From sequence record NC_050154.1: 64,000 nucleotides of DNA; one strand, written 5' to 3'. A program made the translations under genes and the position numbers. Every line of letters begins with the position of its first letter. Position 1 is the first letter of the stretch. This stretch comes from Escherichia phage D6. The notes under the pieces were generated by a model. It had not been told where the DNA came from and ran no database searches. It was given only the letters and a program-made list of their open reading frames with translations. Below, in pieces: positions 4,375 to 31,575 of this stretch.

Positions 4375-4424
4375 TTACAGGACATCTTCTAGAATCTCCC
4401 CCCTTAACATACAAGGGGGGACAT

Positions 4425-4985: not shown

Positions 4986-5003
4986 ACCTTGGTTTAAGAG
5001 AAC
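4978..5003. other. cix-type crossover site, left, overlapping the cin stop
   Basis: Imperfect 26-bp palindrome AATCCTAAACCTTGGTTTAAGAGAAC sharing ACCTTGGTTTAAGAGAA with the site at 9242. Confidence 0.7.
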
Positions 5004-6553: not shown

Positions 6554-6555
6554 TT

Positions 6556-7089
6556 ATGATGCACTTAAAAAATATTACTGCTGGCAACCCTAAAACAAAA
6601 GAGCAATACCAGCTAACAAAGCAATTTAACATCAAATGGCTTTATTCAGATGATGGAAAAAACTGGTATGAGGAACAAAAGAATTTCCGGCCAGACACTT
6701 TGAAAATGGTCTATGACCATAACGGCGTTATTATTTGTATTGAAAAGGATGTTTCAGCAATTAATCCGGAAGGCGCAAGCGTCGTTGAATTACCTGATAT
6801 TACAGCAAATCGCCGGGCTGATATTTCGGGTAAATGGATGTTCAAAGATGGCGTAGTGATAAAGCGAACTTATACCGAGGAGGAACAGAGGCAGCAGGCA
6901 GAGAATGAAAAGCAAAGCCTGTTGCAACTTGTCAGGGATAAAACCCAGCTATGGGACTCACAGCTACGGCTGGGTATCATTTCCGACGAGAATAAACAAA
7001 AATTAACCGAGTGGATGCTCTATGCGCAGAAGGTCGAATCCACAGACACCTCCAGCCTGCCAGTAACGTTTCCAGAACAACCAGAATGA
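6556..7089 (+). CDS. tail fiber assembly chaperone, alternative copy (U-type)
   Basis: 177 aa, paralogous to the 176-aa ORF at 7118..7648 ([22 protein letters not shown]...ITANRRAD). Confidence 0.8.
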   Translation: MMHLKNITAGNPKTKEQYQLTKQFNIKWLYSDDGKNWYEEQKNFRPDTLKMVYDHNGVIICIEKDVSAINPEGASVVELPDITANRRADISGKWMFKDGVVIKRTYTEEEQRQQAENEKQSLLQLVRDKTQLWDSQLRLGIISDENKQKLTEWMLYAQKVESTDTSSLPVTFPEQPE

Positions 7090-7093
7090 AACA

Positions 7094-7110
7094 AGGCCCG
7101 CTATCGGGCC
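7094..7110. terminator. bidirectional hairpin between the two convergent chaperone genes
   Basis: GGCCCGCTATCGGGCC followed by a T-run. Confidence 0.6.
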
Positions 7111-7117
7111 TTAATTT

Positions 7118-7648
7118 TTATTCAGGCTTTTGTGGCCATTCAGGATTTGCCGTATCCACACGGCTGACCAGAACACTGTAGCGTTCCCATGACTCCAGTC
7201 GTGCGCGTTCCTCATCCGTCGCCATATTCAGTCTGACAGCGCGTTCCAGTGGCTGAATAACGTTTTCTGCTTCGGAAAGTAACGCGGCCTTTTGTGATTC
7301 GGCCTGTTGTTGTTGCTCGTCTGCCGTATAAATCCGTTTAACCACAGCTCCGTCCTTAAACATCCACTTCCCTGAATCATCGGCACGACGATTGGCTGTT
7401 ATATCTGGAATCTCAACGACGCTAAAGCCTTCGGGATTAAGCGTTGAGGCATCTTTGGTTATGGCAACAATAATATTATTTTCGTCGTATACAATCTTTA
7501 TGGTGTCGTCCTGAAAGTTATTTACTTCTTCATACCAGTTTTTACCGTCTTCGGACCATAACCAGATAACATCAAAATTCTTTGTTAGCTGATATTGTTC
7601 TTTCGTTTTAGGATTTCCAGACTTAATATTTTTTAAATGCTGCATCAT
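7118..7648 (-). CDS. tail fiber assembly chaperone (U'-type), expressed orientation
   Basis: 176 aa directly downstream of the tail fiber gene; paralog of 6556..7089. Confidence 0.8.
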
Positions 7649-10474
7649 TTACACCTGTGCGACGTTATACCATGTGCCATTGATGTATTTTTGTATTGGC
7701 CTGAAGATGGCTTCATCATCGCCATCTACTTCACCAATGATTCTTAATCCGGTAATTGCGTGTCCGGCTTTTTCATAACGACCACCACGCGCCATCAATT
7801 GAACAACACGTGTGCCAAGTCGGACATCTCTCACATAGCGTGAGTCAAAATTGCCATAATTGCCGGGAATAACTTGCGCACCACAAAGCCAGTTACCGTT
7901 ATTATCCATGTACGCCTGACCATCGGTGCCATTGGCTGTCCTTGAGTTATTAATCATGTAGATGCCAAATTGCTTGTTCCCCAGTCCACCTATCATGAAC
8001 TTTCGGTCGGCGTGATTCTGGCGAAGTAACGCCTGAGCGCTATCAGTGTTAACTATATTTTTCCCAAAGATAGCGTTGTTATCGCGCATCTGAATCCACA
8101 TACCATTACTGCTGTTAATAGCAAAACGGTCTGAAAGTGTCTCCCCTGAAACATTAAGACCACGTCCCATCGAAACAGCGCCAGTAGCGTTATTAATCCA
8201 TAATGGCCTTAATCCGTTATAAGTCCCCATGTTGTCACCGGAGTTTGTCAACATGAAGTATGTATTTGAACCATCATTACGAATAAAGAATCCGTAATTA
8301 CCATAAGCAATACGTAGGCCGTTTGCTGATTTTGATATGACTTCGCCATTTACAATGGCATTGACAAGAACATACAAAGCATCCCATTTAAGATTCATCA
8401 GGTCTTTTGTTGTGGTACTTTGTTTGCTTCTCCATTTGAAATATTCATTGCCGTTGTCGCCTGTCTCAAACCACATGTATGAATCAGTATCGCTGTCGGC
8501 ATCATTTTTAAAACCAATCTTCGCCCAGTCAGTATTCCGAATCCAGGCAAGGATTGAGTCGTTTTCAAAAGTAAGTCCACCGGACAAGGTATCGCCTGTC
8601 TTTTGAACCGCGTTATCAGCCTTGTTTACCGTTTCCTGTAGATTTAAATCTTCCGCCGTTAGCTCAATATTTTTAGAACCGTCAAACGAGACGCCGTTGA
8701 TAGTACATGCTATCTGCAATTTGGTCGCTGTAGCCGCATTACCAGAGGTGTCCTGATTCCCTTTGGCATTGACGCCGGGAACTGAATCTTTTGACGTATA
8801 GATCTGTGCCCACTCGGACCATGCCGCAGCAGTGCTATCTCTTTTGGATCGAATGAAAGCAGGTGCATGAGCGCCATTTGTGCCACTCCAGCCAATGAAT
8901 AACTCACCTTCGCCAGCAGCGGTGGCACCTTTAAGGTGAAGCACATTGCCATAGGGGGAAGGGTAGCCATTGTTGTATGCCTCATACATCTGCAATCCAG
9001 TAGCAGCACCTTGCGTTGTACCGGTAAGCGCAGTAACGCGTCCTCTAGACGTAATTGTTGGTATCGAAATGTTCGTAGAACCATCGAACCTGACGCCATT
9101 AATGTTTATGGCTGTTTTTAATTTCGTCGCGGTATCGGCGTTCCCTGTCAGCGCCCCGGTGATCCCGCCGTTGAAAGTCTGGCGTGCACTCCACGTGTTA
9201 GCCGTGCTCAACAGGGGGATCTTTTCACCGCTGGTACCGAGTTCTCTTAAACCAAGGTATTGGATAACGGCCAGTGTGCTTGTTTTAGCCAGAATATCGC
9301 GACCGACTGACGTTAAATCAGTCTGCGCTACCGTATCCTTACCGGTGAAATAAGGCAGTTTGTTTGCACCAGTCGCAAGGCCAGCGAGCGCGGTTAAAGT
9401 TGCATCCAGAGGCTGTTTGCCTGCCAGCGCATTTGTCATTGTTGTCGCAAAGTTCGGGTCATTACCAAGTGCTGCGGCAAGCTCATTCAGGGTATCAAGA
9501 GCTTCTGGTGATGAACCAACCAATGCGGATATGGCAGCTCTTACATAAGCGGTCGTAGCAATCTGCGTGTTATTCGTACCCTGTGCAGCGGTAGGCGCAG
9601 TAGGTATTCCCGTTAATGCAGGACTTGCTAAAGGAGCTTTAAGAGCCAGAGCATTGTTGATAGTTGTGCTGAAATTCGGGTCGTTATTGATCGCAGCCGC
9701 TATTTCTTTCAGCGTGTCCATCGTTCCCGGAGCACCATTGATAAGCGCATTTATAGCAGCATAGACAAAGGCCGCATTTGCGATCTGTGTGTTGTTTGTA
9801 CCGGGTTCAGGTGTCGGCGAAGTCGGCGTACCTGACAGATGCGGACTATCGAGCGGAGCTTTTGTATCAACCAAATCATGGAGAGTTTTGACAGCCAGAG
9901 GTGTAGCCGCTTTTCTTTCTTCTGTACTGCTTATTTCATTAGAGAATTCGACACCAACAGCACGGTTAACCCGGTATTTAAGCACAATCATTTCTTTAGT
10001 CACAGCCGTTGCGCCGTTAGGCACGATAACTCGACATAATTCAATTTGATTCTGCCCAATAGTATTGTCCGTACGCGCGTAAATTCTTGCAGCACTGACA
10101 GAAGATGCGCTATCTACCTGTGTCGTTTTTACACCATGTTCAAAATTGGCTTCCAGCACAATAATGTTGGTAGCCCCAGCCTTTACCGAGACAGTCACAT
10201 CTTCTATTTGCTGAACGGATATCTGAACATTATTTACATCTACTGAAGCAGCCCCTTTACCTTCTGAGTTTTCAGAAGTTATACGAACACTCAACCCTGT
10301 GCCGGGAACTGGTTCAAATCCACAGTAAAAGCCAGGCAAAACAATATTTTTAAGTTTTCTGTTAAGAGCCGAACTACTATAGAGTTCGAAATATTGAACA
10401 TCAGCAAGCAAAGGCTGTGAGACACCAGAGGATAGTGTCATTATGTTGTTCGTTTTATCAGCCCCCATAATCAA
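7649..10474 (-). CDS. tail fiber protein S (constant N-terminal part fused to the currently selected variable part)
   Basis: 941 aa; Gly/Ala/Thr-rich repeats; contains the inverted-repeat segment and the cix site mid-gene. Confidence 0.9.
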   Translation of the reverse strand: MIMGADKTNNIMTLSSGVSQPLLADVQYFELYSSSALNRKLKNIVLPGFYCGFEPVPGTGLSVRITSENSEGKGAASVDVNNVQISVQQIEDVTVSVKAGATNIIVLEANFEHGVKTTQVDSASSVSAARIYARTDNTIGQNQIELCRVIVPNGATAVTKEMIVLKYRVNRAVGVEFSNEISSTEERKAATPLAVKTLHDLVDTKAPLDSPHLSGTPTSPTPEPGTNNTQIANAAFVYAAINALINGAPGTMDTLKEIAAAINNDPNFSTTINNALALKAPLASPALTGIPTAPTAAQGTNNTQIATTAYVRAAISALVGSSPEALDTLNELAAALGNDPNFATTMTNALAGKQPLDATLTALAGLATGANKLPYFTGKDTVAQTDLTSVGRDILAKTSTLAVIQYLGLRELGTSGEKIPLLSTANTWSARQTFNGGITGALTGNADTATKLKTAININGVRFDGSTNISIPTITSRGRVTALTGTTQGAATGLQMYEAYNNGYPSPYGNVLHLKGATAAGEGELFIGWSGTNGAHAPAFIRSKRDSTAAAWSEWAQIYTSKDSVPGVNAKGNQDTSGNAATATKLQIACTINGVSFDGSKNIELTAEDLNLQETVNKADNAVQKTGDTLSGGLTFENDSILAWIRNTDWAKIGFKNDADSDTDSYMWFETGDNGNEYFKWRSKQSTTTKDLMNLKWDALYVLVNAIVNGEVISKSANGLRIAYGNYGFFIRNDGSNTYFMLTNSGDNMGTYNGLRPLWINNATGAVSMGRGLNVSGETLSDRFAINSSNGMWIQMRDNNAIFGKNIVNTDSAQALLRQNHADRKFMIGGLGNKQFGIYMINNSRTANGTDGQAYMDNNGNWLCGAQVIPGNYGNFDSRYVRDVRLGTRVVQLMARGGRYEKAGHAITGLRIIGEVDGDDEAIFRPIQKYINGTWYNVAQV
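8641..9250. repeat. ~0.6 kb inverted repeat, right copy
   Basis: Reverse complement of 4997..5597. Confidence 0.8.
9242..9267. other. cix-type crossover site, right, inside the tail fiber gene
   Basis: TTCTCTTAAACCAAGGTATTGGATAA; shares a half-site with the left site. Confidence 0.7.
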
Positions 10475-10917
10475 CCCTCAACTTGCTCGATTGTCATGAG
10501 AATACTGTAACGTTTACCTTTATAGAGGGTATCTTGCTGGGTGCAAAGCACACCAAAAGCCCGTTCCTCAGCATCAACAAGCACAAGCGTGTTAAAATCG
10601 TAAGGCGTGTTATCCGGCATTCTTTCTTGTGGGAAGGCTGCATTGATAGTGATAATCCCATCCACGCTGGACAATATCAGATCGGACACAGCAAACTGTT
10701 GAGCGTCACTCAATTTAAAATCGAGTGGAATGTCCGCTATATTCCAGCCTCCTGCACCATTAGCAGTTACCAGACTAGATTTGCACCAATACGCCTTAGA
10801 GATAACAAAACGCGCACCTTTGCCGATCGCCGACTCAGCGCGGCGTGAATAATAGTAGGAAAGCAATTGTGCCTTATACAGGCGGTTACCATCTCTTGCC
10901 TTTAAATTTTCAGCCAT
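10471..10917 (-). CDS. tail-fiber-associated protein (P1 R-like position)
   Basis: 148 aa immediately upstream of S with overlapping stop/start; AAGGAG RBS. Confidence 0.5.
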   Translation of the reverse strand: MAENLKARDGNRLYKAQLLSYYYSRRAESAIGKGARFVISKAYWCKSSLVTANGAGGWNIADIPLDFKLSDAQQFAVSDLILSSVDGIITINAAFPQERMPDNTPYDFNTLVLVDAEERAFGVLCTQQDTLYKGKRYSILMTIEQVEG

Positions 10918-10963
10918 ACGAACATAGCTCCTTCATAAGCAATGAACCAAAGGAGAGTATGCT

Positions 10964-10978
10964 CAGTTTGTGATTTCC
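10964..10978 (-). promoter_or_regulatory. candidate late-promoter box (GGAAATCACAAACTG on minus strand)
   Basis: About 45 bp upstream of the R-like start, followed by a CATACT -10-like hexamer. Confidence 0.5.
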
Positions 10979-11011
10979 GTTGTTCTTCCCCCAAATGCGG
11001 GGGAGGAATTA

Positions 11012-11857
11012 TTAAACAGGTTGAAGGTGGTAATCCAAAGGCCACGCATCGAGTGGGGTTACATCAAGATGTAATTGCTTTTCTGCCGTTCGGTTCGGTA
11101 TGGCGTTAAGAGAAATATTGTCTACCTGGCAGGAGGTATCACTACGGGATAGCATATCAGCCATACTCTCAGTAACATAAACACCTTCAATTACCGAAAC
11201 ATCCGTAGACAAGCAATTTAGTATTTCTGCCACTTCAGGGAATACAGCACTAAGCCGAAACGAGACGCCATCAAAAACAATATGCAATGGCAATAAAGGG
11301 GCTATTACTGTTTCGAAGTCAGATAACAATTTCTGTACAGCGGCTTCTTTATCCTGCTCTCCATATGAGCGATATAGCTTGTTCTGATCAACAACGACCA
11401 GCCCCCTTGATGTCAGGAAGAACTCACCGAATTGAGCCTGTGCCGTAGGTATTTCTATTTCGGTCGCAAAATATGAACCATAGGGGTGTTTTTCTATATT
11501 TACAGGTGCATACAGCGGTTCCCAACTAACAGGAATACAACCGAATTCACGCCAGAATGTCTGCTCAATTGGCAAGATAGTGCCTTTAAAGTGCACTTCA
11601 TCTAAACGTTGTGCCAGCAGCATTGGCCTACGAGCCTTATCTTTTTCAGTGATAACGAAAAAACGCCCGTATTCAGCAATGCGGGCATCCATGTCCTCAC
11701 TGTCCATAGTGAAGAAGGATTTTCTGTTACTTATTCTTGTTAATATTGGTTCTACTGCCTCATTCCAGACATCCTGTAAAGCGTCTATAAATGCACTCCA
11801 GAGATGTGAATCCTGTTTTACTTTAGTTAATCGTTCCTTAAGCCAATTATCTTTCAT
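11012..11857 (-). CDS. putative baseplate protein (P1 gene 16-like position)
   Basis: 281-aa ORF in the tail fiber/baseplate operon. Confidence 0.45.
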   Translation of the reverse strand: MKDNWLKERLTKVKQDSHLWSAFIDALQDVWNEAVEPILTRISNRKSFFTMDSEDMDARIAEYGRFFVITEKDKARRPMLLAQRLDEVHFKGTILPIEQTFWREFGCIPVSWEPLYAPVNIEKHPYGSYFATEIEIPTAQAQFGEFFLTSRGLVVVDQNKLYRSYGEQDKEAAVQKLLSDFETVIAPLLPLHIVFDGVSFRLSAVFPEVAEILNCLSTDVSVIEGVYVTESMADMLSRSDTSCQVDNISLNAIPNRTAEKQLHLDVTPLDAWPLDYHLQPV

Positions 11858-11867
11858 GCTAACCTCA

Positions 11868-13298
11868 TTACGGGTAAGAAATGCTGAACGTTGAAGATTT
11901 CACGTCAAGATAAATGAAGTCATTAAAGTAAACTGCATCTTTCATATTTTGTATTGTTATGTCATAAGAGAGAAACATATCCAGCGACTCTATTACTCGC
12001 CAAATATCTTTAACTTTTACCTGTGCATAACATTGCTGAGAATCATCATCACTCTGTAGTAATAAACTGAATGATGACGAATCACGACCAAAATTTTCTT
12101 CCAACGCTGCTTTAATAGCATTTTGAGCGTCGTCTATCAGAACATTTTTACGTGCAATACCTGTAAATTTTATAGTAAATGGTTGTTCATTTGTATCTAC
12201 ATACTCAAACCGCTTGTTCAACTCATTTGGAACATTCTCTAGAGCTTTCAGTATTTCTGATTTTAGCTGAGCCTGGCTTACACCTGGCTTATGTCCGCAA
12301 AAGAAAATCTTGTTGATGTTTCGAACGTCAAACCCAGTTATTTTCTCTTGCAACGCTTCGCCCCAAACGTTCAACCATGAAGTTCCATGAACAACATTCT
12401 GAATGAATTGGCGATAATCACCGCCCCATACCACTTGTTCATCGTATGCAACATAATACTGAGCACGATTTCGAGTTTCTTCTGTAGTTTCCATACCACT
12501 ACCACCGGTAATGATCGAATCAGTTTTAAACTCTAGTGACTCCACATATTGAGCGATATTTCCAGCCGGTTCTAACTTTTGTCCTTCAGCCAAAGTATAG
12601 TCGCCAAGGCTAGCCATAACATCGATTCGAACCTGACAGCCTGCTGGAGGCATCATACCCATAGAACCATCACCAAACTTGACTCCAAGTTGTTCTGTAG
12701 GTTTATATGCCAATGAATAGTGCTTACTCTTGTCTCTGGACATTCTAAATAATGGGTTATATGTCCATTTTTCTTCTACGCCATCTGTAATAACATAAAC
12801 ATCCAGGCTAGAGACTTCTTTTGTTAATTCTCTGGAAAGCAACAATGTCAGAAATAAAGTTTCCTTCTCAATATCAAATGTAACGCTAACAGCTTCATGC
12901 TGTTTAGTTTCTACGCCAGAAACAGTTCCTCCAGCAGGAATTACAACACTGTTAATAATTGCCAAAGGTGTTTGGTCATTGGCAAGCAATTCAGCCCCGG
13001 CTGGTAACGTAATATCCCGATCAGTTTTATTGGTTATAGACGTTGTTCCGTATGAAGCACTAACAAATCGCCCTACGTAGCTACGGTCTTCAGCAACCGC
13101 TAAAATACTTGAGCGGCGCGTAGCCGTTGAAATAAGTCCCTCAGTGAGGCCGCGGCTTGCAAATGTACGGGCAATATAAATAAGCTGTGATCCGAATATA
13201 GCGTGCATCTGCACAAACTGACTATTTACAAATCGTGACCACCATGTGTTTTCATTTAACTTGGCGTTAAATTTGTCCAGTAATTCTGTAATCGTCAC
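11868..13298 (-). CDS. putative baseplate protein (BplA-like position)
   Basis: 476-aa ORF, operon context. Confidence 0.45.
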   Translation of the reverse strand: MTITELLDKFNAKLNENTWWSRFVNSQFVQMHAIFGSQLIYIARTFASRGLTEGLISTATRRSSILAVAEDRSYVGRFVSASYGTTSITNKTDRDITLPAGAELLANDQTPLAIINSVVIPAGGTVSGVETKQHEAVSVTFDIEKETLFLTLLLSRELTKEVSSLDVYVITDGVEEKWTYNPLFRMSRDKSKHYSLAYKPTEQLGVKFGDGSMGMMPPAGCQVRIDVMASLGDYTLAEGQKLEPAGNIAQYVESLEFKTDSIITGGSGMETTEETRNRAQYYVAYDEQVVWGGDYRQFIQNVVHGTSWLNVWGEALQEKITGFDVRNINKIFFCGHKPGVSQAQLKSEILKALENVPNELNKRFEYVDTNEQPFTIKFTGIARKNVLIDDAQNAIKAALEENFGRDSSSFSLLLQSDDDSQQCYAQVKVKDIWRVIESLDMFLSYDITIQNMKDAVYFNDFIYLDVKSSTFSISYP

Positions 13299-13674: not shown

Positions 13675-16600
13675 TTAATCCTCAAGCAGAGCATCCAGCG
13701 ACGGGTCATTAATAGTTGTGCTAGCACGTGGTCGCGGTTGCGGCTGCGATGTTTTGACAACCTTATCCGGATCGCCTTTTGTATTGTTCTTGTTCACATT
13801 CAGAAGATCGTTCAGGATAGAGCAGATGTTATCCAGCGCCTTCAACATAGCAGGATCGTTATTTATAGTGTCAGTAGTTAATGGTTGTCTTATTCCGCTT
13901 CGTGCGAGATCTGTTACAGTAGGAAGCTGTGGTGGCATAGCAAGAAAAGGTTCTTGCACGGCTGACGCAGAGCCAAATATGGCATTATTGGCTTCGTTTG
14001 ATATACCTCTAATGCTATCTGCGGTTTGTTGAATACCATTATTCAGCCAACTACCGGCGCTCCTGGTAAGCGGGCTAATAGCCCTAGCAATTGTTGAGTT
14101 CTGCCCAGTAGCCTGATAAACCAAATCATTAACAATGCCAGTGCCATCTACCCCACCAATAAGTCGTGAAACGTTATCGCCAATTGCAGGTAACACAGCA
14201 GAGCTAATACGTTTCAGACCTGTTAATGACGAGTCAAACAAAGAGCCAAGCACCCCCTTATCTTCACCATCAATTACCTTGTATCCATTGTCATAAACTG
14301 GAATCCCCCTTGAGTTTACAGGGATTTTTTCACTCTCACTTGCCGAAGAAACACCGGAAAGAAGATCCACTGAAGGCATATCGCGTTCAGCTTTTGGTCT
14401 TTTTTGTAAAGCGTCTCTTATATCAGTTACCTGGCTTGCTTTTTGAAATCCAAAAGATTTACCGGTTAAGCTGGATATCTTTTCAGTAAGAGCCTGATCC
14501 ATTCCTTTCGCTTTTTCGGAAAGCGAAGATATAGAACCAAACGAAGTCGCCGACGCAAAATCCTTAATCAGGCCAAGGCTTGTACCAGCAAGGCTGGTAG
14601 CCGCACCTCCAAATAAATTACCTACCCCGCTGTCATTTATAGCGATTAATCTCTCAAGCAGACTTGATGGAGAGCCAGTATTAACATCAACGTTCTCTGG
14701 ATTAATCGGTTGCGATTGATTGCCTGTTTTTTGTGGCTTTTTGACTGCCTGGGCATATTGTGCAACCTCAATTGGCTGTTGTGTTGCTGTCGGAACGGCA
14801 TTCAAAACTGGTTGAGCTGGAGATTTTCCATTAACATATTTTATCTTGCGACCAACACTATATTGCGAATCGCGGGCAATTAGCTGACCACCATTTTCTT
14901 TCTGAATTTTATTAATCCGCGCCAATGTTTCGTCAGAGAATTGTCCCTCCCATCGACCAGTATTTGTGTTAAATGCCCCAAGAGCATTCTTTATGAACTC
15001 ATTGTTAACCGCCGGGTTTCCACCTTCTTTCGTCGCTATTGCACGAACTAATTGCGTCATAACCTCTGGGTTGCTGACGTCTATTTTTTCATTAGGCGAG
15101 ACGCCAAGATATTTGCTGACGTTATCAATATATTGATTAGTATTGTTCTCCTTTGGGGGTGCCCATTTGGAAATAATACTGGATACCGTCTGTAGCTTCT
15201 GATACCCAGCAGCGGCGCTGGTGCCGTTGTAATAGCTTGACACCTGGTTTGCCAGCGCCCTGATCCCTTCTTCAGGCGTGTTAAATCGCGCAAAACGTTG
15301 TTCACCTTTTGCATTTGGTGCTTCCAGCGTCGCCCCTTCCTGATTAGCGAAAACAAGGTTGCCGAGATTATTATTCCGGTAATTGCGGTTTTTGGCGTTG
15401 CTGCCACCAATATTCAGATCCGCTGCAATGGTGTTGCTGGTAGGGGCATTAAATTCAGCCGGGGAAGTATACCCGTGCTCACCAACACCATCTTCACCAT
15501 CACGCCCGCCTTGTAGCTGCTCACCTAAAGAATGAATCGCATCGACAGTTTTTTTGGTGCCGTCTTCAACAGCTTTTTTTACTTGTTTTGTGTTTTCGTC
15601 AGTGGATAAAAATGTATCCTTAAGGCTACCAAAAACAGATTTTGTGATATCTACCGCGCCGTTAACACCACGAGCAATATCTCCGGTATCAAAATTCTGA
15701 AGTTTTTCACCTGCTCTTTCAAATCCTAGCGCAGAAATTCCTTTCCCTATCAAGTTTGTTGCGCCCGACACCAAGCCCCCCATATCGAGCACATTAGCTG
15801 TTGCGTAAGCCGTTTTTTGCTGTTCGGATACAGCATCATCGTCACTTAAACCAAAGGCTGCCTTTTGCGCCTCTGTATCTGTGTAACCATCTATGGCGTC
15901 ATATCCAGCCATTGCCAGCGAACCGATGATAGGGACCGCTCTTGCCGCAGTGGATGCTGCTGATTTAACTCCTATTTTTGCAGCACTTTTGAGGGCTACA
16001 GATTCAGTTTTTTTCTTTGCAATGGCTTCGCCGGTTTTAATGGTGGCATCTTCAGCCACAACACCAGCTGACTTCACGGCCTTAGCAGTATTTTTTGTTT
16101 CCTTTGCAATCCCCTTTGATGTATCGCTGATAGTGCTTACATCTTTGGGTTTGCTGATCTCATTTTTAACTACTTTTGCTGCTCCGACACCAGTGCCAGC
16201 TGCAGCGCTACCGGCAGCAACTTTTTCGCCAACGGAGAGTGCTTTTTTCCCAAGATTGCGGCCTTTCCTTTTCGATTTATTCCGTTTATTTTTTCCCGTT
16301 TGATCACCAATATTGATTTTATTTCTTCTGCTTGCTCGATTTTTCCAGAGATCACTTAAGCCGAACTTATTTCCAGAAGACACTGATTTCCGAAGCTTAA
16401 CTATCTCGTCAGAAACATTTTCCAGACCATCAATTATTTTGTTGTCATTGGTCTGAAGGATTTTGGTTTGCTCTTCTACTGCTTGTGCGGATTTTGTCTC
16501 AACAGCGTTATTGAACGCTTTTGCAGATGTTGCTTTTTGAGAATTCACCGCCGCCGGATAAGTAATTACTGGTGATATCGCTTTCGAGGTTGATGTTTCT

Positions 16601-17457
16601 TTTTTCCCCTTTTCTACCCATTCTTTAAGAGATTCTGCTTTACCTGTGATCTCTTTAGTTATGTCGTACATGCCTCGAGCCGCCATCCATAACGGCCCAC
16701 CAGCACCGACACCAGCTGCATTTGTTAAAGACTCTTCACTGGAAGACTGATTGCCATCTACCCCCATAATGGAACCTAGCTTTCTGAGAAAGCCAGCTTG
16801 TAATTTTGCGTCGGCTTTACGTGCGTTCTGCAATTCTTTTTTTCTGGCTATATCCTCATTGCTTTTTTGGGATACAAAACGTCCATTACTATCCCGCAGC
16901 GGGCCTTTTAGACTTTGGGGGGATTGTGGTTCAAGAGGGGCTGAATTAGCCGCTACCGGTATAAAACCGTCCGATTTTCGGATGGTCTGACGTGATTGCA
17001 CGGAGCGAACACTTTCTGGTGTGTTCGTTGCAACGATAGCGCGGTCCACGGTTTGGTTTATCGGTGCCCTTTCCTTTTTAGCAGGGAGACGTTTTTTATA
17101 TGGGTTAGTTTGGGCATCTCTAACGCTATCAGATGTACTTTGCTCGTAGTCTTTACGCCTGCGTGATAGTCTGTTGCTAACTCTGCCTTGCTTTTCGTCC
17201 TGTTGAGTTATGGTGCCTACCCCAGAAAGAATGGCGTCTTTTACCTCAGCAAGAGCTTTAAGTTCGTTTGTGCTCGCCTCCTGAATAGCGTCAATTATTG
17301 CGATACGGTCTTTATTCTCTTTCAAAATAACCTCTCTTTTACCAGCGCGATCAACGTTTCCCGGCTTGAGCTTTGTATTTTTCTTCCAGGGCTTTTGACA
17401 TATGGAGTGCTCGCCATTGCGGTAATTGTTCAACGTCGCTAACGGGCTGATATCCAT
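13675..17457 (-). CDS. large structural/injection protein, Sit-like (tape-measure-like)
   Basis: 1260 aa, low-complexity Ala/Gly/Ser/Lys-rich, with a globular domain near residues 630-760. Confidence 0.65.
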   Translation of the reverse strand: MDISPLATLNNYRNGEHSICQKPWKKNTKLKPGNVDRAGKREVILKENKDRIAIIDAIQEASTNELKALAEVKDAILSGVGTITQQDEKQGRVSNRLSRRRKDYEQSTSDSVRDAQTNPYKKRLPAKKERAPINQTVDRAIVATNTPESVRSVQSRQTIRKSDGFIPVAANSAPLEPQSPQSLKGPLRDSNGRFVSQKSNEDIARKKELQNARKADAKLQAGFLRKLGSIMGVDGNQSSSEESLTNAAGVGAGGPLWMAARGMYDITKEITGKAESLKEWVEKGKKETSTSKAISPVITYPAAVNSQKATSAKAFNNAVETKSAQAVEEQTKILQTNDNKIIDGLENVSDEIVKLRKSVSSGNKFGLSDLWKNRASRRNKINIGDQTGKNKRNKSKRKGRNLGKKALSVGEKVAAGSAAAGTGVGAAKVVKNEISKPKDVSTISDTSKGIAKETKNTAKAVKSAGVVAEDATIKTGEAIAKKKTESVALKSAAKIGVKSAASTAARAVPIIGSLAMAGYDAIDGYTDTEAQKAAFGLSDDDAVSEQQKTAYATANVLDMGGLVSGATNLIGKGISALGFERAGEKLQNFDTGDIARGVNGAVDITKSVFGSLKDTFLSTDENTKQVKKAVEDGTKKTVDAIHSLGEQLQGGRDGEDGVGEHGYTSPAEFNAPTSNTIAADLNIGGSNAKNRNYRNNNLGNLVFANQEGATLEAPNAKGEQRFARFNTPEEGIRALANQVSSYYNGTSAAAGYQKLQTVSSIISKWAPPKENNTNQYIDNVSKYLGVSPNEKIDVSNPEVMTQLVRAIATKEGGNPAVNNEFIKNALGAFNTNTGRWEGQFSDETLARINKIQKENGGQLIARDSQYSVGRKIKYVNGKSPAQPVLNAVPTATQQPIEVAQYAQAVKKPQKTGNQSQPINPENVDVNTGSPSSLLERLIAINDSGVGNLFGGAATSLAGTSLGLIKDFASATSFGSISSLSEKAKGMDQALTEKISSLTGKSFGFQKASQVTDIRDALQKRPKAERDMPSVDLLSGVSSASESEKIPVNSRGIPVYDNGYKVIDGEDKGVLGSLFDSSLTGLKRISSAVLPAIGDNVSRLIGGVDGTGIVNDLVYQATGQNSTIARAISPLTRSAGSWLNNGIQQTADSIRGISNEANNAIFGSASAVQEPFLAMPPQLPTVTDLARSGIRQPLTTDTINNDPAMLKALDNICSILNDLLNVNKNNTKGDPDKVVKTSQPQPRPRASTTINDPSLDALLED

Positions 17458-17471
17458 ATAGAGTCAGGTTG

Positions 17472-18293
17472 TTAATAATGGTTAGCCATCCATTCAGATC
17501 TAATTGATGGGATAAACTCTCTATTGAGAAAGGGGACGTACAGTGTGGTTGTCACATCTGCACCCTCCTTAGCGTTTTTGCAATGTTGCGGAGGCAGGAT
17601 CAGTCGGCTTGTGCCTCTCTCAATAGACATTTTCAGGCCGTGGCGTAGGTCTTTTTGCATAAGCTGTATGCGAGCCACAAGCGGAGTAAATTCGGTTTCA
17701 AGCGCCATGCTTTCAATGATGTCAAAGCGTCGGTTAGCGGCCTGCGTGAAGTCCTCCGGATCGTCTTCAAGCGCCGTGCATAAAGCGAGTTCAGCAATTC
17801 GCATCCGTGCCACGCCAGCACTGTATTCGGGGCTTTTCATATCAGGAAGTGACGCTCGCATTCGTTCAAGGAGTTCCGCGCCTTTCCCGGTTAATGGTTT
17901 AAGTATCCAGTCAGTTGGTATTCCATTTACTGGTACGTTGGTTTTCACGTAAGGAGGTACAGTGAGTATTTCTACTGTTTGGGCCAGGTCGCTCAGGTTA
18001 ATATCTGCATGATGCGTATTACCGCAGTGACTGCACTCATAGGAGTAGGTCATTACTGCATCGGGGCGCGAATTAACAAATATCCACCAAAGAGCAGTTC
18101 TGCGATCCTGAACTGTCCAGTTAGCACTGTCGTTAATTTCACCATCCTGCATAGAGTTAAGGTACTCTGTAGTAGTTGCCTCATCTTCTGCCGGGTTCAG
18201 GTCAGAATATTTCAGCGCATCCTTCACGGTAGGGGCGTGGAACTGAATTTCTGTCTCAGGACGGGAAGGCAATGGGAATTTTGGAATGTTCAA
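17472..18293 (-). CDS. putative morphogenetic protein (PmgB-like position)
   Basis: 273 aa, first gene of the operon. Confidence 0.45.
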   Translation of the reverse strand: MNIPKFPLPSRPETEIQFHAPTVKDALKYSDLNPAEDEATTTEYLNSMQDGEINDSANWTVQDRRTALWWIFVNSRPDAVMTYSYECSHCGNTHHADINLSDLAQTVEILTVPPYVKTNVPVNGIPTDWILKPLTGKGAELLERMRASLPDMKSPEYSAGVARMRIAELALCTALEDDPEDFTQAANRRFDIIESMALETEFTPLVARIQLMQKDLRHGLKMSIERGTSRLILPPQHCKNAKEGADVTTTLYVPFLNREFIPSIRSEWMANHY

Positions 18294-18339
18294 TTATTCC
18301 TCCGAAAAGCAGGTATCTGTTCATTTTCCAGAGGATAGG

Positions 18340-18355
18340 GAGTGTGTGATTTGCG
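18340..18355 (-). promoter_or_regulatory. candidate late-promoter box (CGCAAATCACACACTC on minus strand)
   Basis: Upstream of the pmgB-like start; same AAATCACA core. Confidence 0.45.
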
Positions 18356-18398
18356 ATGGGGATTGAATGAAGATCTTTGCCGGTCGAGAAGCGATTAT

Positions 18399-18660
18399 TG
18401 AGGGTGATTTTTACACCTTAAGTGACGCTACTCACATATCCACAGAGTATTTTTATAAACCTTTTTCCATTTTTAATCCTTTTTAGATCCTTTTTAGGCG
18501 TCGCTGGAGCCAGTAGTGGCGCGGGCTGTAGAGGAGGCTGGTGTAAGATTTGCCCTCAATTAAATACGATCGGTGTAAGATTTGCCCTCAAAAGGTGTAA
18601 GATTTGCCCTCAAAAGGTGTAGTAATTGCCCTCAAAGTGATGTAAAAATTGCCCTCACCA
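18399..18660. other. origin-like region: inverted iteron, DnaA-box-like TATCCACAG (~18437), AT-rich stretch, five direct iterons
   Basis: Read directly; classic iteron-plasmid origin layout upstream of the rep gene. Confidence 0.65.
18540..18657 (+). repeat. iteron array, 5 direct copies of GGTGTAAGATTTGCCCTCA (last two degenerate), mostly 22-23 bp spacing
   Basis: Copies begin near 18540, 18572, 18594, 18616, 18639. Confidence 0.85.
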
Positions 18661-18681
18661 TTTGAAGGATCACACAGGGTT

Positions 18682-19437
18682 ATGAACAGAGCGGAATTAA
18701 CAGCAAAAGCCGTCAGCCTGATTGAGTCAGCGACACCTATTAGTCGTAGTTTGGCACAAGCCAATGAGATCACGGAGGCTGCTTATCACCTGACTCGCGA
18801 CCAAAAGCGACTGTTGTTTATTGTGGTGGGAAGACTTCGCTATGCTTCTAAGGATGGCGTTCTTGGTTCAGGTGCCTGTGAGTTGACGGTCAACGAATAT
18901 GCAGAGATGTATAATTTGCCCTCTGCTGAAGCCAGCAAGGATATTCGTAAGGCCATTTCAGGTCTTAGCGAGAAGAAAGTTACGATATATAACCCTGATG
19001 AATCGACCGAATCAGAAGACAGTTATGAGTCTTATCCTTGGATGATTAAGGATGCCTATTCACCACGGCGCGGGACTTACATTATTCATCTTAATCCATA
19101 TCTCATGCCGTTTTTTACTCTGCTTGATAAGAGATTCACAAGGCTGAATTTTACCGAAGTATCTCGCCTTACAAATCCTTATTCTATGCGGCTTTATGAG
19201 TCCTTATGCCAGTACAGGAAGGATGATGGAAGCGGCTTTGCCATACTTGGCGTCGAATGGATGCGGGAGCGTTATGGGTTACCAAAAAGCTATCAGCGGT
19301 ATGCCGAATTTAAGAGAAGTTTTTTAACGAAGGCTGTAGCAGAGATTGAAAAAAATACAAAAATGAAAATAGTCTTCTCAGAGGTGACGGAAGGCGGCAA
19401 AGTTACCAGGATAAAATTTACCTATCAGCAGTCTTAA
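18682..19437 (+). CDS. iteron-binding replication initiator, Rep_3-like
   Basis: ANEITEAAYHLTRDQKRLLFIVVGRL N-terminal signature; flanked by iterons; start moved to the ATG at 18682 because the track start lies inside an iteron. Confidence 0.8.
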   Translation: MNRAELTAKAVSLIESATPISRSLAQANEITEAAYHLTRDQKRLLFIVVGRLRYASKDGVLGSGACELTVNEYAEMYNLPSAEASKDIRKAISGLSEKKVTIYNPDESTESEDSYESYPWMIKDAYSPRRGTYIIHLNPYLMPFFTLLDKRFTRLNFTEVSRLTNPYSMRLYESLCQYRKDDGSGFAILGVEWMRERYGLPKSYQRYAEFKRSFLTKAVAEIEKNTKMKIVFSEVTEGGKVTRIKFTYQQS

Positions 19438-19770
19438 GGGCAATTTTTACACCCTTCTCAAGGTGTAGAATTTGCCCTTAACGATCGGCAATTGAGGGCA
19501 ATTTTTACATCTTAATTGCATGTATCTTGTTATTAGCAAGTTGTGTTTTTATATAACGTATTGATATATAAGGGTTATGTAAAAATCACCCTCAACCAAT
19601 ATCGTGCGTATCGTGCATTCTTATTGCGCTTTTTTATTATCATTCACTGTGTTAACTGATTGATATTATTGAAATGTGTAAAGAATGCCTTCATTACAGA
19701 TGAATTGATGATGTAAAAAATGCCCTCAAAATTGCGCTACCTTCCCTACCCGCTATCGTTGAGGGCGTGG
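19437..19770. repeat. downstream iteron-like copies in both orientations within AT-rich DNA (inc-type control region)
   Basis: AGGGCAATTTTTACACC, GGTGTAGAATTTGCCCTTA, TGAGGGCAATTTTTACATC, GATGTAAAAAATGCCCTCA. Confidence 0.6.
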
Positions 19771-19818
19771 GTGCTGACGGGAAATGAGCAACCCTCCAGC
19801 ACACATAATTAAAGCGCT

Positions 19819-20526
19819 TCAGAATTTAATCACTCCACTCACAGCTCCCTTTAACGCACTTGTAGCCATGCCTGCGGCACCGTTGACCAAAGCAGAAACA
19901 CCTGAGCCTGCGGATGTGTATTTCTGGAAAGTGATTGGGTATGACAAGAACTCTGACACCTGATCACGTGAGCGAGTGATTTCCCCAAGTTGTGTAGGAA
20001 ATACGCGCATTTCTTCTTCCAGTTCTTTTCCGCCGTCCTGAGTTACCCGGTAGACACGGATTTTCATCAGATATTCCGGAGGAAGGTTTATTGTTCCATC
20101 AGGATTTGTTACACGAGAACGACGCTCTTTGAACCAGTCCATGATCTTGCCATCTTCGGTATCCCTCACGGTCATAGTGACCGGTCCGGCGCTAACATAG
20201 GTTGGCTTGCTGAATTCTACGCTGCCGATCACCTTGCTTTCTGTCTCGATGTTCCCACTGCTGTAGGTGATATCCTTCACGAACATATCGAAGCCGTTCA
20301 GACCATCCACTTCAACGGTCCACTGCCACCCCTGGGCGTAACGGATACGCATAGCGGCAGCAACAATATTTTTCCCGTAGGCAATATCGCTACTGTAATT
20401 CCCGCTTACCCCGCCGCCTGATATGGCTTTATCAAGAATGTCGCTAATGAGGTTGCTGGTGAATGATTTCGTGTTAAATGACAATGCGGTGGTCAACGTT
20501 CTACCAACGCTGCTGAAAATACTCAC
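19819..20526 (-). CDS. hypothetical virion structural protein
   Basis: 235-aa ORF, last gene of the minus-strand structural operon. Confidence 0.5.
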   Translation of the reverse strand: MSIFSSVGRTLTTALSFNTKSFTSNLISDILDKAISGGGVSGNYSSDIAYGKNIVAAAMRIRYAQGWQWTVEVDGLNGFDMFVKDITYSSGNIETESKVIGSVEFSKPTYVSAGPVTMTVRDTEDGKIMDWFKERRSRVTNPDGTINLPPEYLMKIRVYRVTQDGGKELEEEMRVFPTQLGEITRSRDQVSEFLSYPITFQKYTSAGSGVSALVNGAAGMATSALKGAVSGVIKF

Positions 20527-20541
20527 TCTGCGCCTCCAGCG

Positions 20542-21093
20542 TTAAAAAATGGTAGCCCCCGGAATAATGGCCCGGTTTGAGGACATTTTTTCCTCAATCT
20601 CCTGCACGCGGGCATATAGCGTGGCTTCATCGGGCAGATCGGAGTAGTCAAATTTCCCGTCGATGGATGCTCTACGCTGCCGGGCGACATTTCTTACGTT
20701 GATAAGCGCCTCCAGATATTCCTCCAGCATTCCAATGATTGCAGGAGGCACTTGCCATTCATCCAGCTTTCTGTCGCGTAGATTAACCAGATACAGCATT
20801 CGAAAAGGCCAGCGTTCTGAACCTGTTAGCTCTAATTCAATAAAGCCGGATAATTCATCCGAATAGACCAACAGGCCGTTGTTGTCGGTAACATGAACCA
20901 GAGAGAGATAATCTTCTGGCAACGGGATTGCAGTACCACCAGCTCTTTCAAGTTTTAACGTTTTCACTACCCCTGCCCTGTCCTGATACGTGGTCAGAGC
21001 TTTGATCAGGAATGCTTTCAACGTTTCTTCTTCACGCACAAGCAGCGGATTAAATCGCTCTTTAACGCTTTCTAATAATTCAATTGGTGTCAT
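20542..21093 (-). CDS. hypothetical virion structural protein
   Basis: 183-aa ORF, operon context. Confidence 0.5.
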   Translation of the reverse strand: MTPIELLESVKERFNPLLVREEETLKAFLIKALTTYQDRAGVVKTLKLERAGGTAIPLPEDYLSLVHVTDNNGLLVYSDELSGFIELELTGSERWPFRMLYLVNLRDRKLDEWQVPPAIIGMLEEYLEALINVRNVARQRRASIDGKFDYSDLPDEATLYARVQEIEEKMSSNRAIIPGATIF

Positions 21094-28623: not shown

Positions 28624-29430
28624 CTATGGTTCCTTTTTGGTGTTCTTTTGGAGCGCATCGATAACGCCTTGTGGCATGATTAAACTGATTGCCGGACTCA
28701 TTACTGCATCATCCAGTAGAGAACCAGTTAACGTGATGGCGACAGCGTTCTCTAAACCTTTGGTTGCCTGAGTGGTTGACGTTTTAATGCGACCTGTAAG
28801 GGCTACGACACTCTCACTTGCTGAGTTAATTTCGGAGAGTAAAGCTTCGGCGGCTGTCACTGCTTCCCGTAAAGCATCAATTTCATCCTGAGTAATGACT
28901 GGAGCCTGAGCGCCCCCAGCACCACCCTGTCCACCATTGCTATCACCACCACCAGCACTTCCGGCAGCTTCAATTTTTGCGTTAATGGCGTTCATGGCGG
29001 TTTTCAGAGCATCAAGTTTTAGCGCCGTCAATGCGTCCGTTAGAGATTGCGGAATGGAAACATTCCCCATTCCCTCAACAAGGGCGAAAGCAGGTATGGG
29101 GGTCAGCTCGTTACCTTTTGCGTAGCATTCCCAGCCAATCTTCATCTGTAACAGCTCTGATGGCTTGGTGTATGGGGAAAGAGAATCAGCCAGTAATGAA
29201 GACGCTTTGCTGGCCTCATTGAGCTGTTCAGAAAAGCCAAGCAATTGAGTAGTCCAGGCCGAAACAGAATCAGGATAGGTTTTATCGGCGTGAACTATTC
29301 CCTGTATGGCGCTGGCGAGCGATGAGGCTTTTACAGAAGCTGCTCGGCTTATGGTTATAGATTCTGGTGTAGAGATACCGGCATCTGACAGAATTTTGAA
29401 GGCTTTAACTTCACCTATTGAATCAAGCAT
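28624..29430 (-). CDS. hypothetical structural protein
   Basis: Start moved to MLDSIG; its ATG overlaps the TAA of the upstream gene. Confidence 0.5.
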   Translation of the reverse strand: MLDSIGEVKAFKILSDAGISTPESITISRAASVKASSLASAIQGIVHADKTYPDSVSAWTTQLLGFSEQLNEASKASSLLADSLSPYTKPSELLQMKIGWECYAKGNELTPIPAFALVEGMGNVSIPQSLTDALTALKLDALKTAMNAINAKIEAAGSAGGGDSNGGQGGAGGAQAPVITQDEIDALREAVTAAEALLSEINSASESVVALTGRIKTSTTQATKGLENAVAITLTGSLLDDAVMSPAISLIMPQGVIDALQKNTKKEP

Positions 29431-29714
29431 TATGCAACCTGAAAAATATCCTCGCCGTTGGCGATAACAGAACCACAAGAAAGCAGATCGCCTACACAGA
29501 CAACTCCCTTTCCACCTATCGAAAACCATGCTCGCGTCGATACAGCTGCCCCTGGATGTGCACTGTTACCGTCAGTGTGACTGGGAAACATGGCACCATC
29601 TACAACAACTGGCTTACCGTTAACGGTGAACCAGGGAACGGTTTCAGCTACCAGTCGCGGCGGAAATCCTCCGTGACCAGAACAAAGGGTGTCGCTGGTG
29701 GCTATTGCGCTCAT
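29430..29714 (-). CDS. PAAR-like spike-tip protein
   Basis: 94 aa with Gly/Cys pattern (CSGHGG, VNGKPVVVDGA, VCVGDLLSCGSVI). Confidence 0.55.
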   Translation of the reverse strand: MSAIATSDTLCSGHGGFPPRLVAETVPWFTVNGKPVVVDGAMFPSHTDGNSAHPGAAVSTRAWFSIGGKGVVCVGDLLSCGSVIANGEDIFQVA

Positions 29715-29789
29715 TCTTCACCTCCTGGTTATCCTTCTATTGTCATCACTTTGTTATTTCGTCATTCAAACGGAGAGTTAAATTTCGGA

Positions 29790-29965
29790 ATATTTTTGTA
29801 TTCTCAATTCGCTCTCAAATTTATCTCACTATCAGACCATCATTCGGTGGGTGATTAAGATATTCTCAAAATAAACTCAACAAGCGCCCTTTTTTATCTC
29901 GTTTGGTGTGGATTTTTGGGGGCTTCTCTTTTAAAATTACATTTTGATTCTCAAATGTGTCTCAG
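29790..29965 (+). repeat. parC-like centromere candidate, 5-7 copies of (A/T)TTCTCAAA
   Basis: GTATTCTCAATT, GCTCTCAAATTT, ATATTCTCAAAAT, GATTCTCAAATG, GTCTCAGAAG in the 190 bp before parM. Confidence 0.4.
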
Positions 29966-29980
29966 AAGTGGAGCAAGAAG

Positions 29981-30937
29981 ATGCGCATTTTTATCGATGA
30001 TGGTTCAACCAATATCAAAATGCTGTGGGAGCACGACGGGGAAACTCGCACTCACATCAGCCCTAACAGCTTTAAGCGCGGATGGTCAGCAACATTTGGT
30101 GCGGGCAAGCCGTTTAACTATGTCATTGACGACGAAAAGTATTCATACGACTTGATATCGCCAGATGTTCTGCCGACGAATAATGTGGAATGGCAATACA
30201 GCCCGCTTAACGTCCTGGCTGTTCACCATGCCCTGCTGACAAGCGGTATTGAGCCGCAGGAAGTAGAAATTGTGGTCACGCTGCCTCTGGCAGAGTTTTA
30301 CGACGACGACGCGCAATACAATCTCGATAACATCGAGCGCAAGAAAGCCAGTCTTATGCGCCCCGTCACGCTGAATAAAGGCAATGTATTCACTATTAAG
30401 AAAGTTACGGTACGCCCGGAGTCTATCCCGGCGGGAATTAGCCTGTGCGACAATCTGAACCCTGCCCACTCTGTTCTTATCGTCGATTTGGGTGGAACTA
30501 CCCTTGATGTTTCAATGGTCGCTGGACAAATGACGGCAGTTTCCCGTGTTTTTGGCGATTCGAATCTTGGTGTATCACTGGTCACCAGGGAAGTAAGGCA
30601 AGCACTTGCAAGGGCCAATACCGAAACGTCAAATTACAATGTTGATCAGCTCATTATTAACCGCCACGATGAAGATTATCTGAACGACAATATCAATGAC
30701 CCATCAGCGATTGGTGATGTGAAAAAGGCCATTGCCGCAAGCATTGACCGTCTGCGTACCCGCGTTCTTGATGTGATTGGCGACTTTAAAGGATATACGC
30801 ATGTCATGGTGATCGGTGGTGGCGCACCGCTGGTGGCAGATGCAATTCGCGAGCAAGTTAATATTCGTGATGACCGTTTCTTCGTGGCGGATGACCCGCA
30901 ACTTGCTCTTGTTCATGGCCTGAAAGCAATCGGTTAA
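29981..30937 (+). CDS. parM: actin-like partition ATPase ParM/StbA
   Basis: MRIFIDDGSTNIK...ISPNSFK...AVHHALLTSG...LIVDLGGTTLDVS; start moved to the RBS-supported ATG. Confidence 0.9.
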   Translation: MRIFIDDGSTNIKMLWEHDGETRTHISPNSFKRGWSATFGAGKPFNYVIDDEKYSYDLISPDVLPTNNVEWQYSPLNVLAVHHALLTSGIEPQEVEIVVTLPLAEFYDDDAQYNLDNIERKKASLMRPVTLNKGNVFTIKKVTVRPESIPAGISLCDNLNPAHSVLIVDLGGTTLDVSMVAGQMTAVSRVFGDSNLGVSLVTREVRQALARANTETSNYNVDQLIINRHDEDYLNDNINDPSAIGDVKKAIAASIDRLRTRVLDVIGDFKGYTHVMVIGGGAPLVADAIREQVNIRDDRFFVADDPQLALVHGLKAIG

Positions 30938-30943
30938 CGAGGT

Positions 30944-31288
30944 ATGTCCATGTCTCAGGAACGTAAGAAAGTGATGATTTATCTTCGCCCAGAGGCTTAT
31001 GCCAATGAAAAGGCGGCGAGCGAGAAGATAAAAAAACATAGCGATATGGCAAGAACTGCATTGTTGGCAGGGCTTGCGCTGGGAGAAGTCGATAGCAGGC
31101 TTCCAGGATTACTGGCTTCCCTGCTGACCGAAGACAATAACCCGGAGCTGATCCGAAAAATGCTGGCATCCTTCTTGGAACTACCAGCTGCGGTTGAGGA
31201 GCGCCCTGCCTCCATTGAGCCAGTGAAGGAGCAATTTGTTGCCAAAAGCGCGTCGGCGCGCAATCTGGCTGACTCTCTACCTGATTGA
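30944..31288 (+). CDS. parR: ParR/StbB-like centromere-binding protein
   Basis: 114 aa immediately after parM; N-terminal RHH-like region, acidic C-terminus. Confidence 0.6.
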   Translation: MSMSQERKKVMIYLRPEAYANEKAASEKIKKHSDMARTALLAGLALGEVDSRLPGLLASLLTEDNNPELIRKMLASFLELPAAVEERPASIEPVKEQFVAKSASARNLADSLPD

Positions 31289-31307
31289 CAGAAGATGTGC
31301 TGGTTTA

Positions 31308-31333
31308 AGGCTGCAAATTGCAGCCTTTTTTAT
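31308..31333 (+). terminator. intrinsic terminator after parR
   Basis: AAGGCTGCAAATTGCAGCCTT followed by TTTTT. Confidence 0.7.
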
Positions 31334-31344
31334 GCCTTAATGGT

Positions 31345-31420
31345 GTCTAATTAGTGTTAATCTGGCACCAGTTAGGTGCTGTTATGGTGCAATTTTGTAT
31401 CTGGTTCCAATTTGGGGCTG
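31345..31420. repeat. GGTGC(A/T) and GGTTCCAATT boxes upstream of the parA-like gene
   Basis: CTGGCACCAGTTAGGTGCTGTTATGGTGCAATT...CTGGTTCCAATTTGG; same motifs recur after the RHH gene. Confidence 0.45.
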
Positions 31421-31575
31421 CTTTCGTGTTAAATAGGATGCAATATAAGGTGTATTTGGTCTGATTGATGTTATACTTTGCCAAACATTCATGACTCCAT
31501 TATAGAGCCTGTCCCGCATCAAAAAGGCTCTTATCTGGAACCGTTTTGATACCAAAATCACACCGAGGAACGGAT

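Follow-up and report, generated by a model that had tools for sequence, protein, structure and literature searches.

The locus examined here raises the question of what kind of replication system lies among the late genes of Escherichia phage D6, and whether it belongs to the type of phage P1 or to another. In the stretch of 64,000 nucleotides that was analyzed from sequence record NC_050154.1 (hereafter, the window), positions 18350–19791 hold a compact iteron replicon, which is real and well formed. In order, the cassette contains one iteron in inverted orientation, the DnaA box, the AT-rich stretch, five iterons, the rep gene, and six iterons of mixed orientation. Its limits are those of the part that differs from the D6-like plasmid pE2863-2 (L012), which has a P1-type replicon there. 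On the opposite strand, the cassette is bordered by genes for virion proteins, namely a Sit-like transglycosylase of 1260 aa, a T4-baseplate-like protein, and proteins of the tail/baseplate. The replicon is located beside the late operon, as a preliminary description of this DNA had stated.

The origin contains an array of five direct 19-bp repeats (18541–18658, plus strand), identified with a repeat finder and by reading of positions 17800–20400. The iterons are located at 18541–18559, 18573–18591, 18595–18613, 18617–18635, and 18640–18658, with start-to-start spacings of 32, 22, 22, and 23 bp (22–23 bp in three of the four gaps), and their consensus is (G/A)TGTA(A/G)NA(T/A)TTGCCCTCA. Another copy in inverted orientation (GGTGTAAAAATCACCCTCAA on the minus strand, 18398–18417) precedes the DnaA box. 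The cluster downstream of rep (19434–19729), presumed to be a copy-control array of the incC/incA kind, includes six copies in both orientations at 19434–19452 (minus), 19463–19481 (plus), 19492–19510 (minus), 19577–19595 (plus), 19676–19694 (plus, degenerate), and 19711–19729 (plus). The pattern TGTANNANTNNCCCTYA, with one mismatch at most, has 12 matches in the 64 kb against 0.55 expected, all of which are within 18399–19728, and this number was reached in none of 100 shuffles; the full 19-mer with up to three mismatches has seven matches in the window against 0.01 expected. The cognate iterons beside rep therefore comprise the five direct upstream repeats and seven others, including one within rep. 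Both the upstream array and the downstream copies of the preliminary description are borne out by these searches.

The site within rep (ATGTATAATTTGCCCTCTG, 18907–18925, plus strand) was found as a match to the degenerate pattern and provides the codons for MYNLPS. The 18 nt GATGTATAATTTGCCCTC (18906–18923) are identical in relatives from Pantoea and Erwinia despite a Rep identity of just 60–62%, and F repE lacks such a site. We regard this conserved intragenic iteron-like site as a modest lead, as are the slot exchange and the P1-type relics described below.

The putative DnaA box (ATATCCACA, 18436–18444, plus strand) matches the consensus at eight of nine positions, aligns with a DnaA box of F ori2, and is invariant in the D6-like variants, which agrees with the earlier mention of a DnaA-box-like site. 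Boxes with one mismatch are no more frequent in the window than by chance (10 against 16 expected); hence, a single 8/9 box is not significant alone, and it is the position and conservation of this one that speak for it. The adjacent AT-rich region (18445–18507), presumed to be the DNA-unwinding element, contains repeated CCTTTTT motifs and one GATC site. Its A+T content is 68%, compared to 53.5% for the window, and reaches 40 of 50 nt in the core (18448–18497), so the AT-rich stretch noted upstream of the initiator is also present. Across the D6-like variants, 87% of its columns are invariant.

The rep gene (18682–19437, plus strand) encodes a 251-aa RepE-like Rep_3 initiator with WH1 and WH2 domains, as assigned from Pfam, PDB, and RefSeq. 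Both winged-helix domains, Rep3_N (102.7 bits, E = 2.9e-29, gathering cutoff 22.4) and Rep3_C (58.3 bits, E = 9e-16, cutoff 21.1), score above the Pfam gathering thresholds (PF01051 and PF21205), in agreement with the Rep_3-like initiator that had been proposed. Residues 21–249 match the structures of F RepE (PDB 1REP and 7UXY) with an E-value of about 1e-74, and Rep is 50% identical to RepE of an IncFIA plasmid. The top match in NCBIfam is the RepE model NF010305 at 280.6 bits, which does not reach the equivalog cutoff of 342. By sequence comparison, Rep is a homolog of RepE and not an equivalog. The protein is identical to RefSeq WP_001077897.1. Among plasmids, Rep identity is at least 95% within the D6-like group, followed by a gap down to the ordinary RepE proteins at approximately 50%. 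A tblastn search of Rep against approximately 50,700 phage records, which do not include D6 itself (MF356679/NC_050154), retrieved only distant plasmid-type Rep proteins, and a megablast search of the replicon against the same records gave no match. Among characterized proteins, Rep is closest to F RepE and not to a protein of phage lytic replication.

The preliminary description placed the start of the open reading frame inside an iteron and proposed on this basis that iteron binding could autoregulate the promoter. The mechanical start, an in-frame TTG at 18649, does fall inside iteron 5. However, the start that RefSeq gives for the identical gene, like the alignment with RepE, favors the ATG at 18682, 23 nt past the end of iteron 5 (18658), so the TTG is probably unused and the start within the iteron is likely an artifact of ORF calling. 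Autoregulation through the iterons is still likely, on a different basis: the distance from iteron 5 to the ATG is only 23 nt, so that the iteron array and the promoter must overlap. A standard sigma-70 consensus scan upstream of rep found no promoter. A relaxed scan gave a weak best candidate at 18620–18649 (plus strand), which would combine the extended −10 element TGTAAAAAT in iteron 5 (18641–18649) with a weak −35 element, TAGTAA, in iteron 4. An Rfam scan of 17400–20600 detected no RNA family, and thus nothing suggests antisense-RNA control. Terminator-like hairpins after rep (19604–19629) are not conserved in the variants and are not claimed.

Comparison with phage P1 indicates that the designation "non-P1 type" in the preliminary description was correct, since neither Rep nor the iterons have detectable similarity to those of P1. 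A BLASTP comparison of Rep with P1 RepA found no significant similarity (E = 0.057), and the iterons of P1 (GATGTGTGCTGGAGGGAAA) and of the D6-like replicon (GTGTAAGATTTGCCCTCAA) are unrelated. P1-type iterons (ATGTGTGCTGGAGGGAAA) occur in the window only as two relics at 19767–19806, and the replicon does not belong to the P1 RepA/oriR family. The geometry of the P1 replicon is nearly the same, with DnaA box(es), five origin iterons extending up to rep, a promoter inside them, and a downstream array according to the P1 annotation, but the GATC-rich heptamer region of P1 is absent from the D6-like replicon. In addition, parAB-parS adjoins the replicon in P1, unlike in the D6-like element. In the neighboring 44 kb that was searched against the phage records, only an invertible tail-fiber segment (4423–9877 of the window) resembled P1 DNA, at approximately 91%. 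P1 has an IncY replicon, in which replication incompatibility is set by the iterons (PMC10999674). Because the D6-like iterons differ from them, an incompatibility type other than that of P1/IncY is a sound inference from the sequence.

The replicon can be described more precisely than as "non-P1". On the sequence evidence, it is of the F-ori2/RepE-like type with its own iteron specificity. F and the D6-like replicon have in common, and in the same order, the DnaA box(es), the AT-rich region, 19-bp iterons phased at approximately 22 bp, the rep gene for a 251-aa Rep_3 initiator, and the downstream iterons. The two origins align through CAC(T/A)TATCCAC followed by TATTTTTATAA and then TTTTTAGATC, the segment TATTTTTATAA...TTTTTAGATC of the AT-rich region being common to both. 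In the F iteron TGTGACAAATTGCCCTCAG, the determinant of IncFIA specificity, the right half TTGCCCTCA is identical to that of the D6-like iteron, whereas the left half is not (GTGTAAGAT in the D6-like replicon versus TGTGACAAA in F). The identical right half implies that some cross-reaction with F RepE is possible. The origin architecture differs in several respects. The D6-like origin has five iterons abutting rep and one DnaA box, while two iterons and two adjacent DnaA boxes are present in the F-type plasmid examined. The extra inverted iteron to the left of the DnaA box is not found in F. In F-type replicons, an inverted-repeat operator for autorepression by Rep dimers overlaps the rep promoter; the F-type plasmid carries the repeat tgtgacaatctaaaaaattgtcaca between its iterons and rep, but no such repeat is present in the 23 nt between iteron 5 and the rep ATG of the D6-like replicon. 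The partition genes are also placed differently: sopABC adjoins repE in F, while the partition genes of the D6-like window (ParM, 29957–30937; StbB-like, 30944–31288; ParA-like, 31546–32217) are located approximately 10.5 kb from the replicon.

RepE-like replicons with Rep proteins 60–63% identical to the D6-like Rep are present in Pantoea sp. pAPP145_3 and in an Erwinia aeris contig. They share the same plan of DnaA boxes, an AT-rich region, five iterons spaced at 22 bp and abutting rep, and a downstream array. Their iteron consensus, TGTAGAAATTGCCCTCA, is near-identical to the D6-like one, the intragenic iteron-like site is kept, and TTATCCAC is found at the position of the D6-like DnaA box. 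They differ from the D6-like replicon in having two adjacent DnaA boxes, as in F, and long downstream arrays that are nearly all inverted. Since the downstream iterons of the D6-like replicon are few and of mixed orientation, unlike these arrays and that of F, in which all copies are inverted, their role in control is less certain.

Conservation was examined in four sequences, namely the window and the variants L009 (E. fergusonii), L010 (E. marmotae), and L011 (E. coli), which diverge from the window by 10–25% in the flanking late genes. The upstream inverted iteron is invariant in 100% of its columns, compared to 56% in its left flank, and the DnaA box is also 100% invariant. The five origin iterons are 95–100% invariant, as opposed to 23% for the spacer that separates iterons 1 and 2. 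The six downstream iterons retain 74–89% invariant columns and the spacers between them 10–39%. Rep is 98–100% identical in amino acid sequence among the variants at 90–92% nucleotide identity, which points to strong purifying selection. The retention of iterons and Rep, while spacers and synonymous sites drift, argues for function.

The 1.5-kb replicon region is 99–100% identical to 65 plasmids, mostly of approximately 90 kb, from E. coli, Salmonella, and Shigella, and the plasmid records matching it number 111 in total, 108 of which are typed as non-mobilizable. The identity is 99.9–100% over 1501 bp in more than 60 records, with the flanking Sit and tail genes in collinear arrangement; in Salmonella Typhimurium pYU39_89 (CP011430), it is 99.9% identical. 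This near-identity to D6-like plasmids indicates that the window is a D6-like plasmid prophage and that the feature is its plasmid replicon. An assignment to the pSLy3/SSU5-type phage-plasmids was dropped, as that group is SSU5-related, while the window has a P1-like tail sheath and Sit. On this sequence comparison, the feature is the plasmid-maintenance replicon of the D6-like plasmid prophage, and it has already been annotated and mentioned in the literature. Plasmid pYU39_89 was reported in 2019 to be 99% identical to phage D6 and to carry a repB gene linked to iterons as well as a separate lytic repL (PMC6799933). A 2025 preprint used D6 repB as a screening marker and stated that plasmid-typing databases lack the D6 replicon (bioRxiv 10.1101/2025.09.12.675607). 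A report of autonomous replication of a replicon fragment was not found in the literature. MOB-suite assigns rep_cluster_1704 as the sole replicon in four plasmids of this kind with a single typing, and a fifth, L011, is typed as IncFIA plus rep_cluster_1704.

The slot occupied by the replicon is variable among D6-like elements. In pE2863-2 (L012), homology with the window ends at 18349 and resumes at 19792, with flanks that are 97–99% identical, and the cassette in the same slot encodes a RepA 84% identical to P1 RepA, with five P1-type iterons upstream and seven downstream. According to the criteria cited in PMC10999674, the L012 cassette should be IncY. In the window, two P1-type iteron relics are found at the right edge of the RepE-like cassette (GTGGGTGCTGACGGGA, 19767–19782, plus strand; ATGTGTGCTGGAGGGT, 19791–19806, minus strand), compared with 0.17 expected in 64 kb; the second relic shares homology with the final iteron of the L012 cassette of P1 type. 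Variants L009 and L011 carry up to three such relics. When the P1-type L012 cassette was searched for relics of RepE-type iterons, none was found, which fits replacement of a P1-type by a RepE-type replicon in the lineage of the window, though it does not prove the direction. Together, the relics at the right edge and the P1-type cassette in the L012 slot suggest that, in the lineage of the window, a P1-type cassette gave way to the RepE-like one. Such an exchange agrees with the general view that phage-plasmids escape incompatibility by swapping their replication modules (PMC10879196). A more far-reaching proposal, which we consider unlikely as a whole, is that the late-gene slot is a replicon-exchange site where the RepE-like cassette displaced an ancestral P1/IncY replicon, that the two or three leftover P1-type iterons may be more than inert scars and might, by continued binding of IncY RepA, sense a P1-type prophage in the same cell or interfere with it, and that two sites lacking in F, the conserved iteron within rep and the one to the left of the DnaA box, are added control sites.

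We propose that 18350–19791 is very probably the theta replicon of the prophage (plasmid) state of a D6-like phage-plasmid, built like F ori2/repE, with predicted RepE-like initiation, autoregulation and handcuffing through the iterons, and its own predicted incompatibility. An alternative would be a true IncFIA (F-type) replicon, in which RepE and Rep cross-recognize their iterons and which makes the element incompatible with F-like plasmids. F RepE is indeed the closest characterized homolog, the origin is homologous to that of F, the iteron half TTGCCCTCA is identical, and L011 is typed by MOB-suite as 'IncFIA,rep_cluster_1704'. Nevertheless, the 50% identity of Rep to RepE, the NCBIfam score below the cutoff (280.6 against 342), the different left half of the iteron (GTGTAAGAT versus TGTGACAAA), the separate MOB-suite cluster (1704), and the absence of the F-type operator inverted repeat make such an assignment improbable.

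Two further explanations deny the cassette its role as the origin of the plasmid state. If the replicon were decayed or redundant, maintenance of the prophage would depend on another origin, such as the lytic repL, which D6-like elements also carry (PMC6799933), or an unrecognized one; the consensus scan without a promoter would agree with this. We consider it very improbable, given the strong purifying selection on Rep, the footprints of the iterons, DnaA box, and AT-rich region across the variants, and the status of the cassette as the sole typed replicon in the four singly typed plasmids. Moreover, L012, which does not have the RepE-like cassette, has a complete P1-type plasmid replicon in the slot, indicating that the slot is needed. 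It is more improbable still that the repeats serve mainly as regulatory operators for the neighboring late (virion) operons, as might be supposed from the location of the cassette between two late gene blocks on the opposite strand and from the leftmost inverted iteron, which lies approximately 105 nt upstream of the start of a 273-aa late gene (18293). The repeats have the layout of an iteron origin homologous to F ori2, the same layout is found in the Pantoea and Erwinia replicons, and the unit as a whole can be substituted by a P1-type replicon with the same late genes on either side.

For the theta replicon proposed here, a scheme can be drawn by analogy with known iteron plasmids. As with F RepE, Rep monomers would bind the five phased iterons (18541–18658), and Rep and host DnaA at the adjacent box would open the AT-rich region (18445–18507). 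The host helicase and replisome would then be loaded, leading to theta replication. Rep bound to the last iterons should repress its own synthesis, as annotated for PrepA of P1; the F-type dimer operator is not applicable. Copy number would be limited by the six downstream iterons, and probably also by the inverted one that precedes the DnaA box, through titration of Rep and through pairing with the iterons of the origin (handcuffing). The left half of the iteron differs from those of both F and P1, and so the replicon is predicted to have its own incompatibility specificity and to coexist with P1/IncY prophages.

The plan of iteron replicons is very well understood, and the D6-like replicon leaves the current understanding of iteron replication unchanged. 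Although infrequent, D6-like phage-plasmids have a wide distribution in E. coli, Shigella, and Salmonella, and invasive S. Typhimurium ST213 is among their hosts. Describing their replicon as RepE/ori2-like, with its own iteron specificity and exchangeable with an IncY cassette, will aid the typing of these elements and help to predict the plasmids and prophages with which they may coexist.

Sequence comparison aligned window positions 18350-19791, the RepE-like iteron replicon cassette, with positions 2251-3616 of the D6-like plasmid pE2863-2 (NZ_AP018804). In this plasmid, the slot is filled by a complete P1/IncY-type replicon that replaces the RepE-like one, and its flanks are 97-99% identical to those in the window. 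The plasmid RepA shares 84% identity with P1 RepA, and P1-type iterons are present in the same replicon. The same two-piece match was obtained with a second record, NZ_CP044179. P1-type iteron-like sequences are also located where the RepE-like cassette ends on its right side, both in the window (19767-19782 on the plus strand and 19791-19806 on the minus strand) and in two divergent D6-like variants, L009 from E. fergusonii (about 2800-2880) and L011 from E. coli (about 2790-2872). They resemble remnants of an array of P1-type iterons that has been displaced.

Two further features were found in the cassette. An iteron-like site at 18907-18925 lies inside rep and spans its MYNLPS codons, whereas repE of F has no such intragenic site. 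The 18-nt sequence GATGTATAATTTGCCCTC (18906-18923) is the same in Pantoea and Erwinia relatives, including at synonymous positions, and the Rep proteins of these relatives are just 60-62% identical to that of the window. Among the downstream iterons, the motif TAACnnATTGATAT occurs at 19556-19570 and 19653-19667, each copy about 10-20 nt upstream of an iteron. It is kept in four D6-like variants, with a variable spacer around it, and could be part of a longer repeat unit or a host-factor site.

Genes for ParM, a StbB-like protein, and a ParA-like ATPase adjoin a PAAR-motif gene at 29430-32217. Because about 10.5 kb separates these partition genes from the replicon, the window has no linkage between replication and partition, unlike P1 and F.

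When window positions 1-44000 were compared with deposited phage genomes, the only DNA-level match was the invertible tail-fibre (C-segment/cin) region at 4423-9877, which is about 91% identical to P1; megablast gave no match to these genomes elsewhere in 1-44000. The central part of this region (about 5630-8640) also matches Mu and D108 (92-93%).

An 11-kb contig (CALWLV010000256.1), binned in a metagenome assembly under the name 'uncultured Roseburia sp.', encodes a Rep 100% identical to that of the window, and is most likely a mis-binned contig of an enterobacterial phage-plasmid. The replicon region of plasmid NZ_CP122910 is likewise 100% identical to that of the window. Comparison of positions 9659-11994 of that plasmid with window 13675-18293 shows an IS91-family insertion that truncates the Sit-like transglycosylase gene and the 273-aa late gene. 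Since the window has intact copies of the two genes, it derives from a different member of the D6-like family, one that is probably phage-competent.
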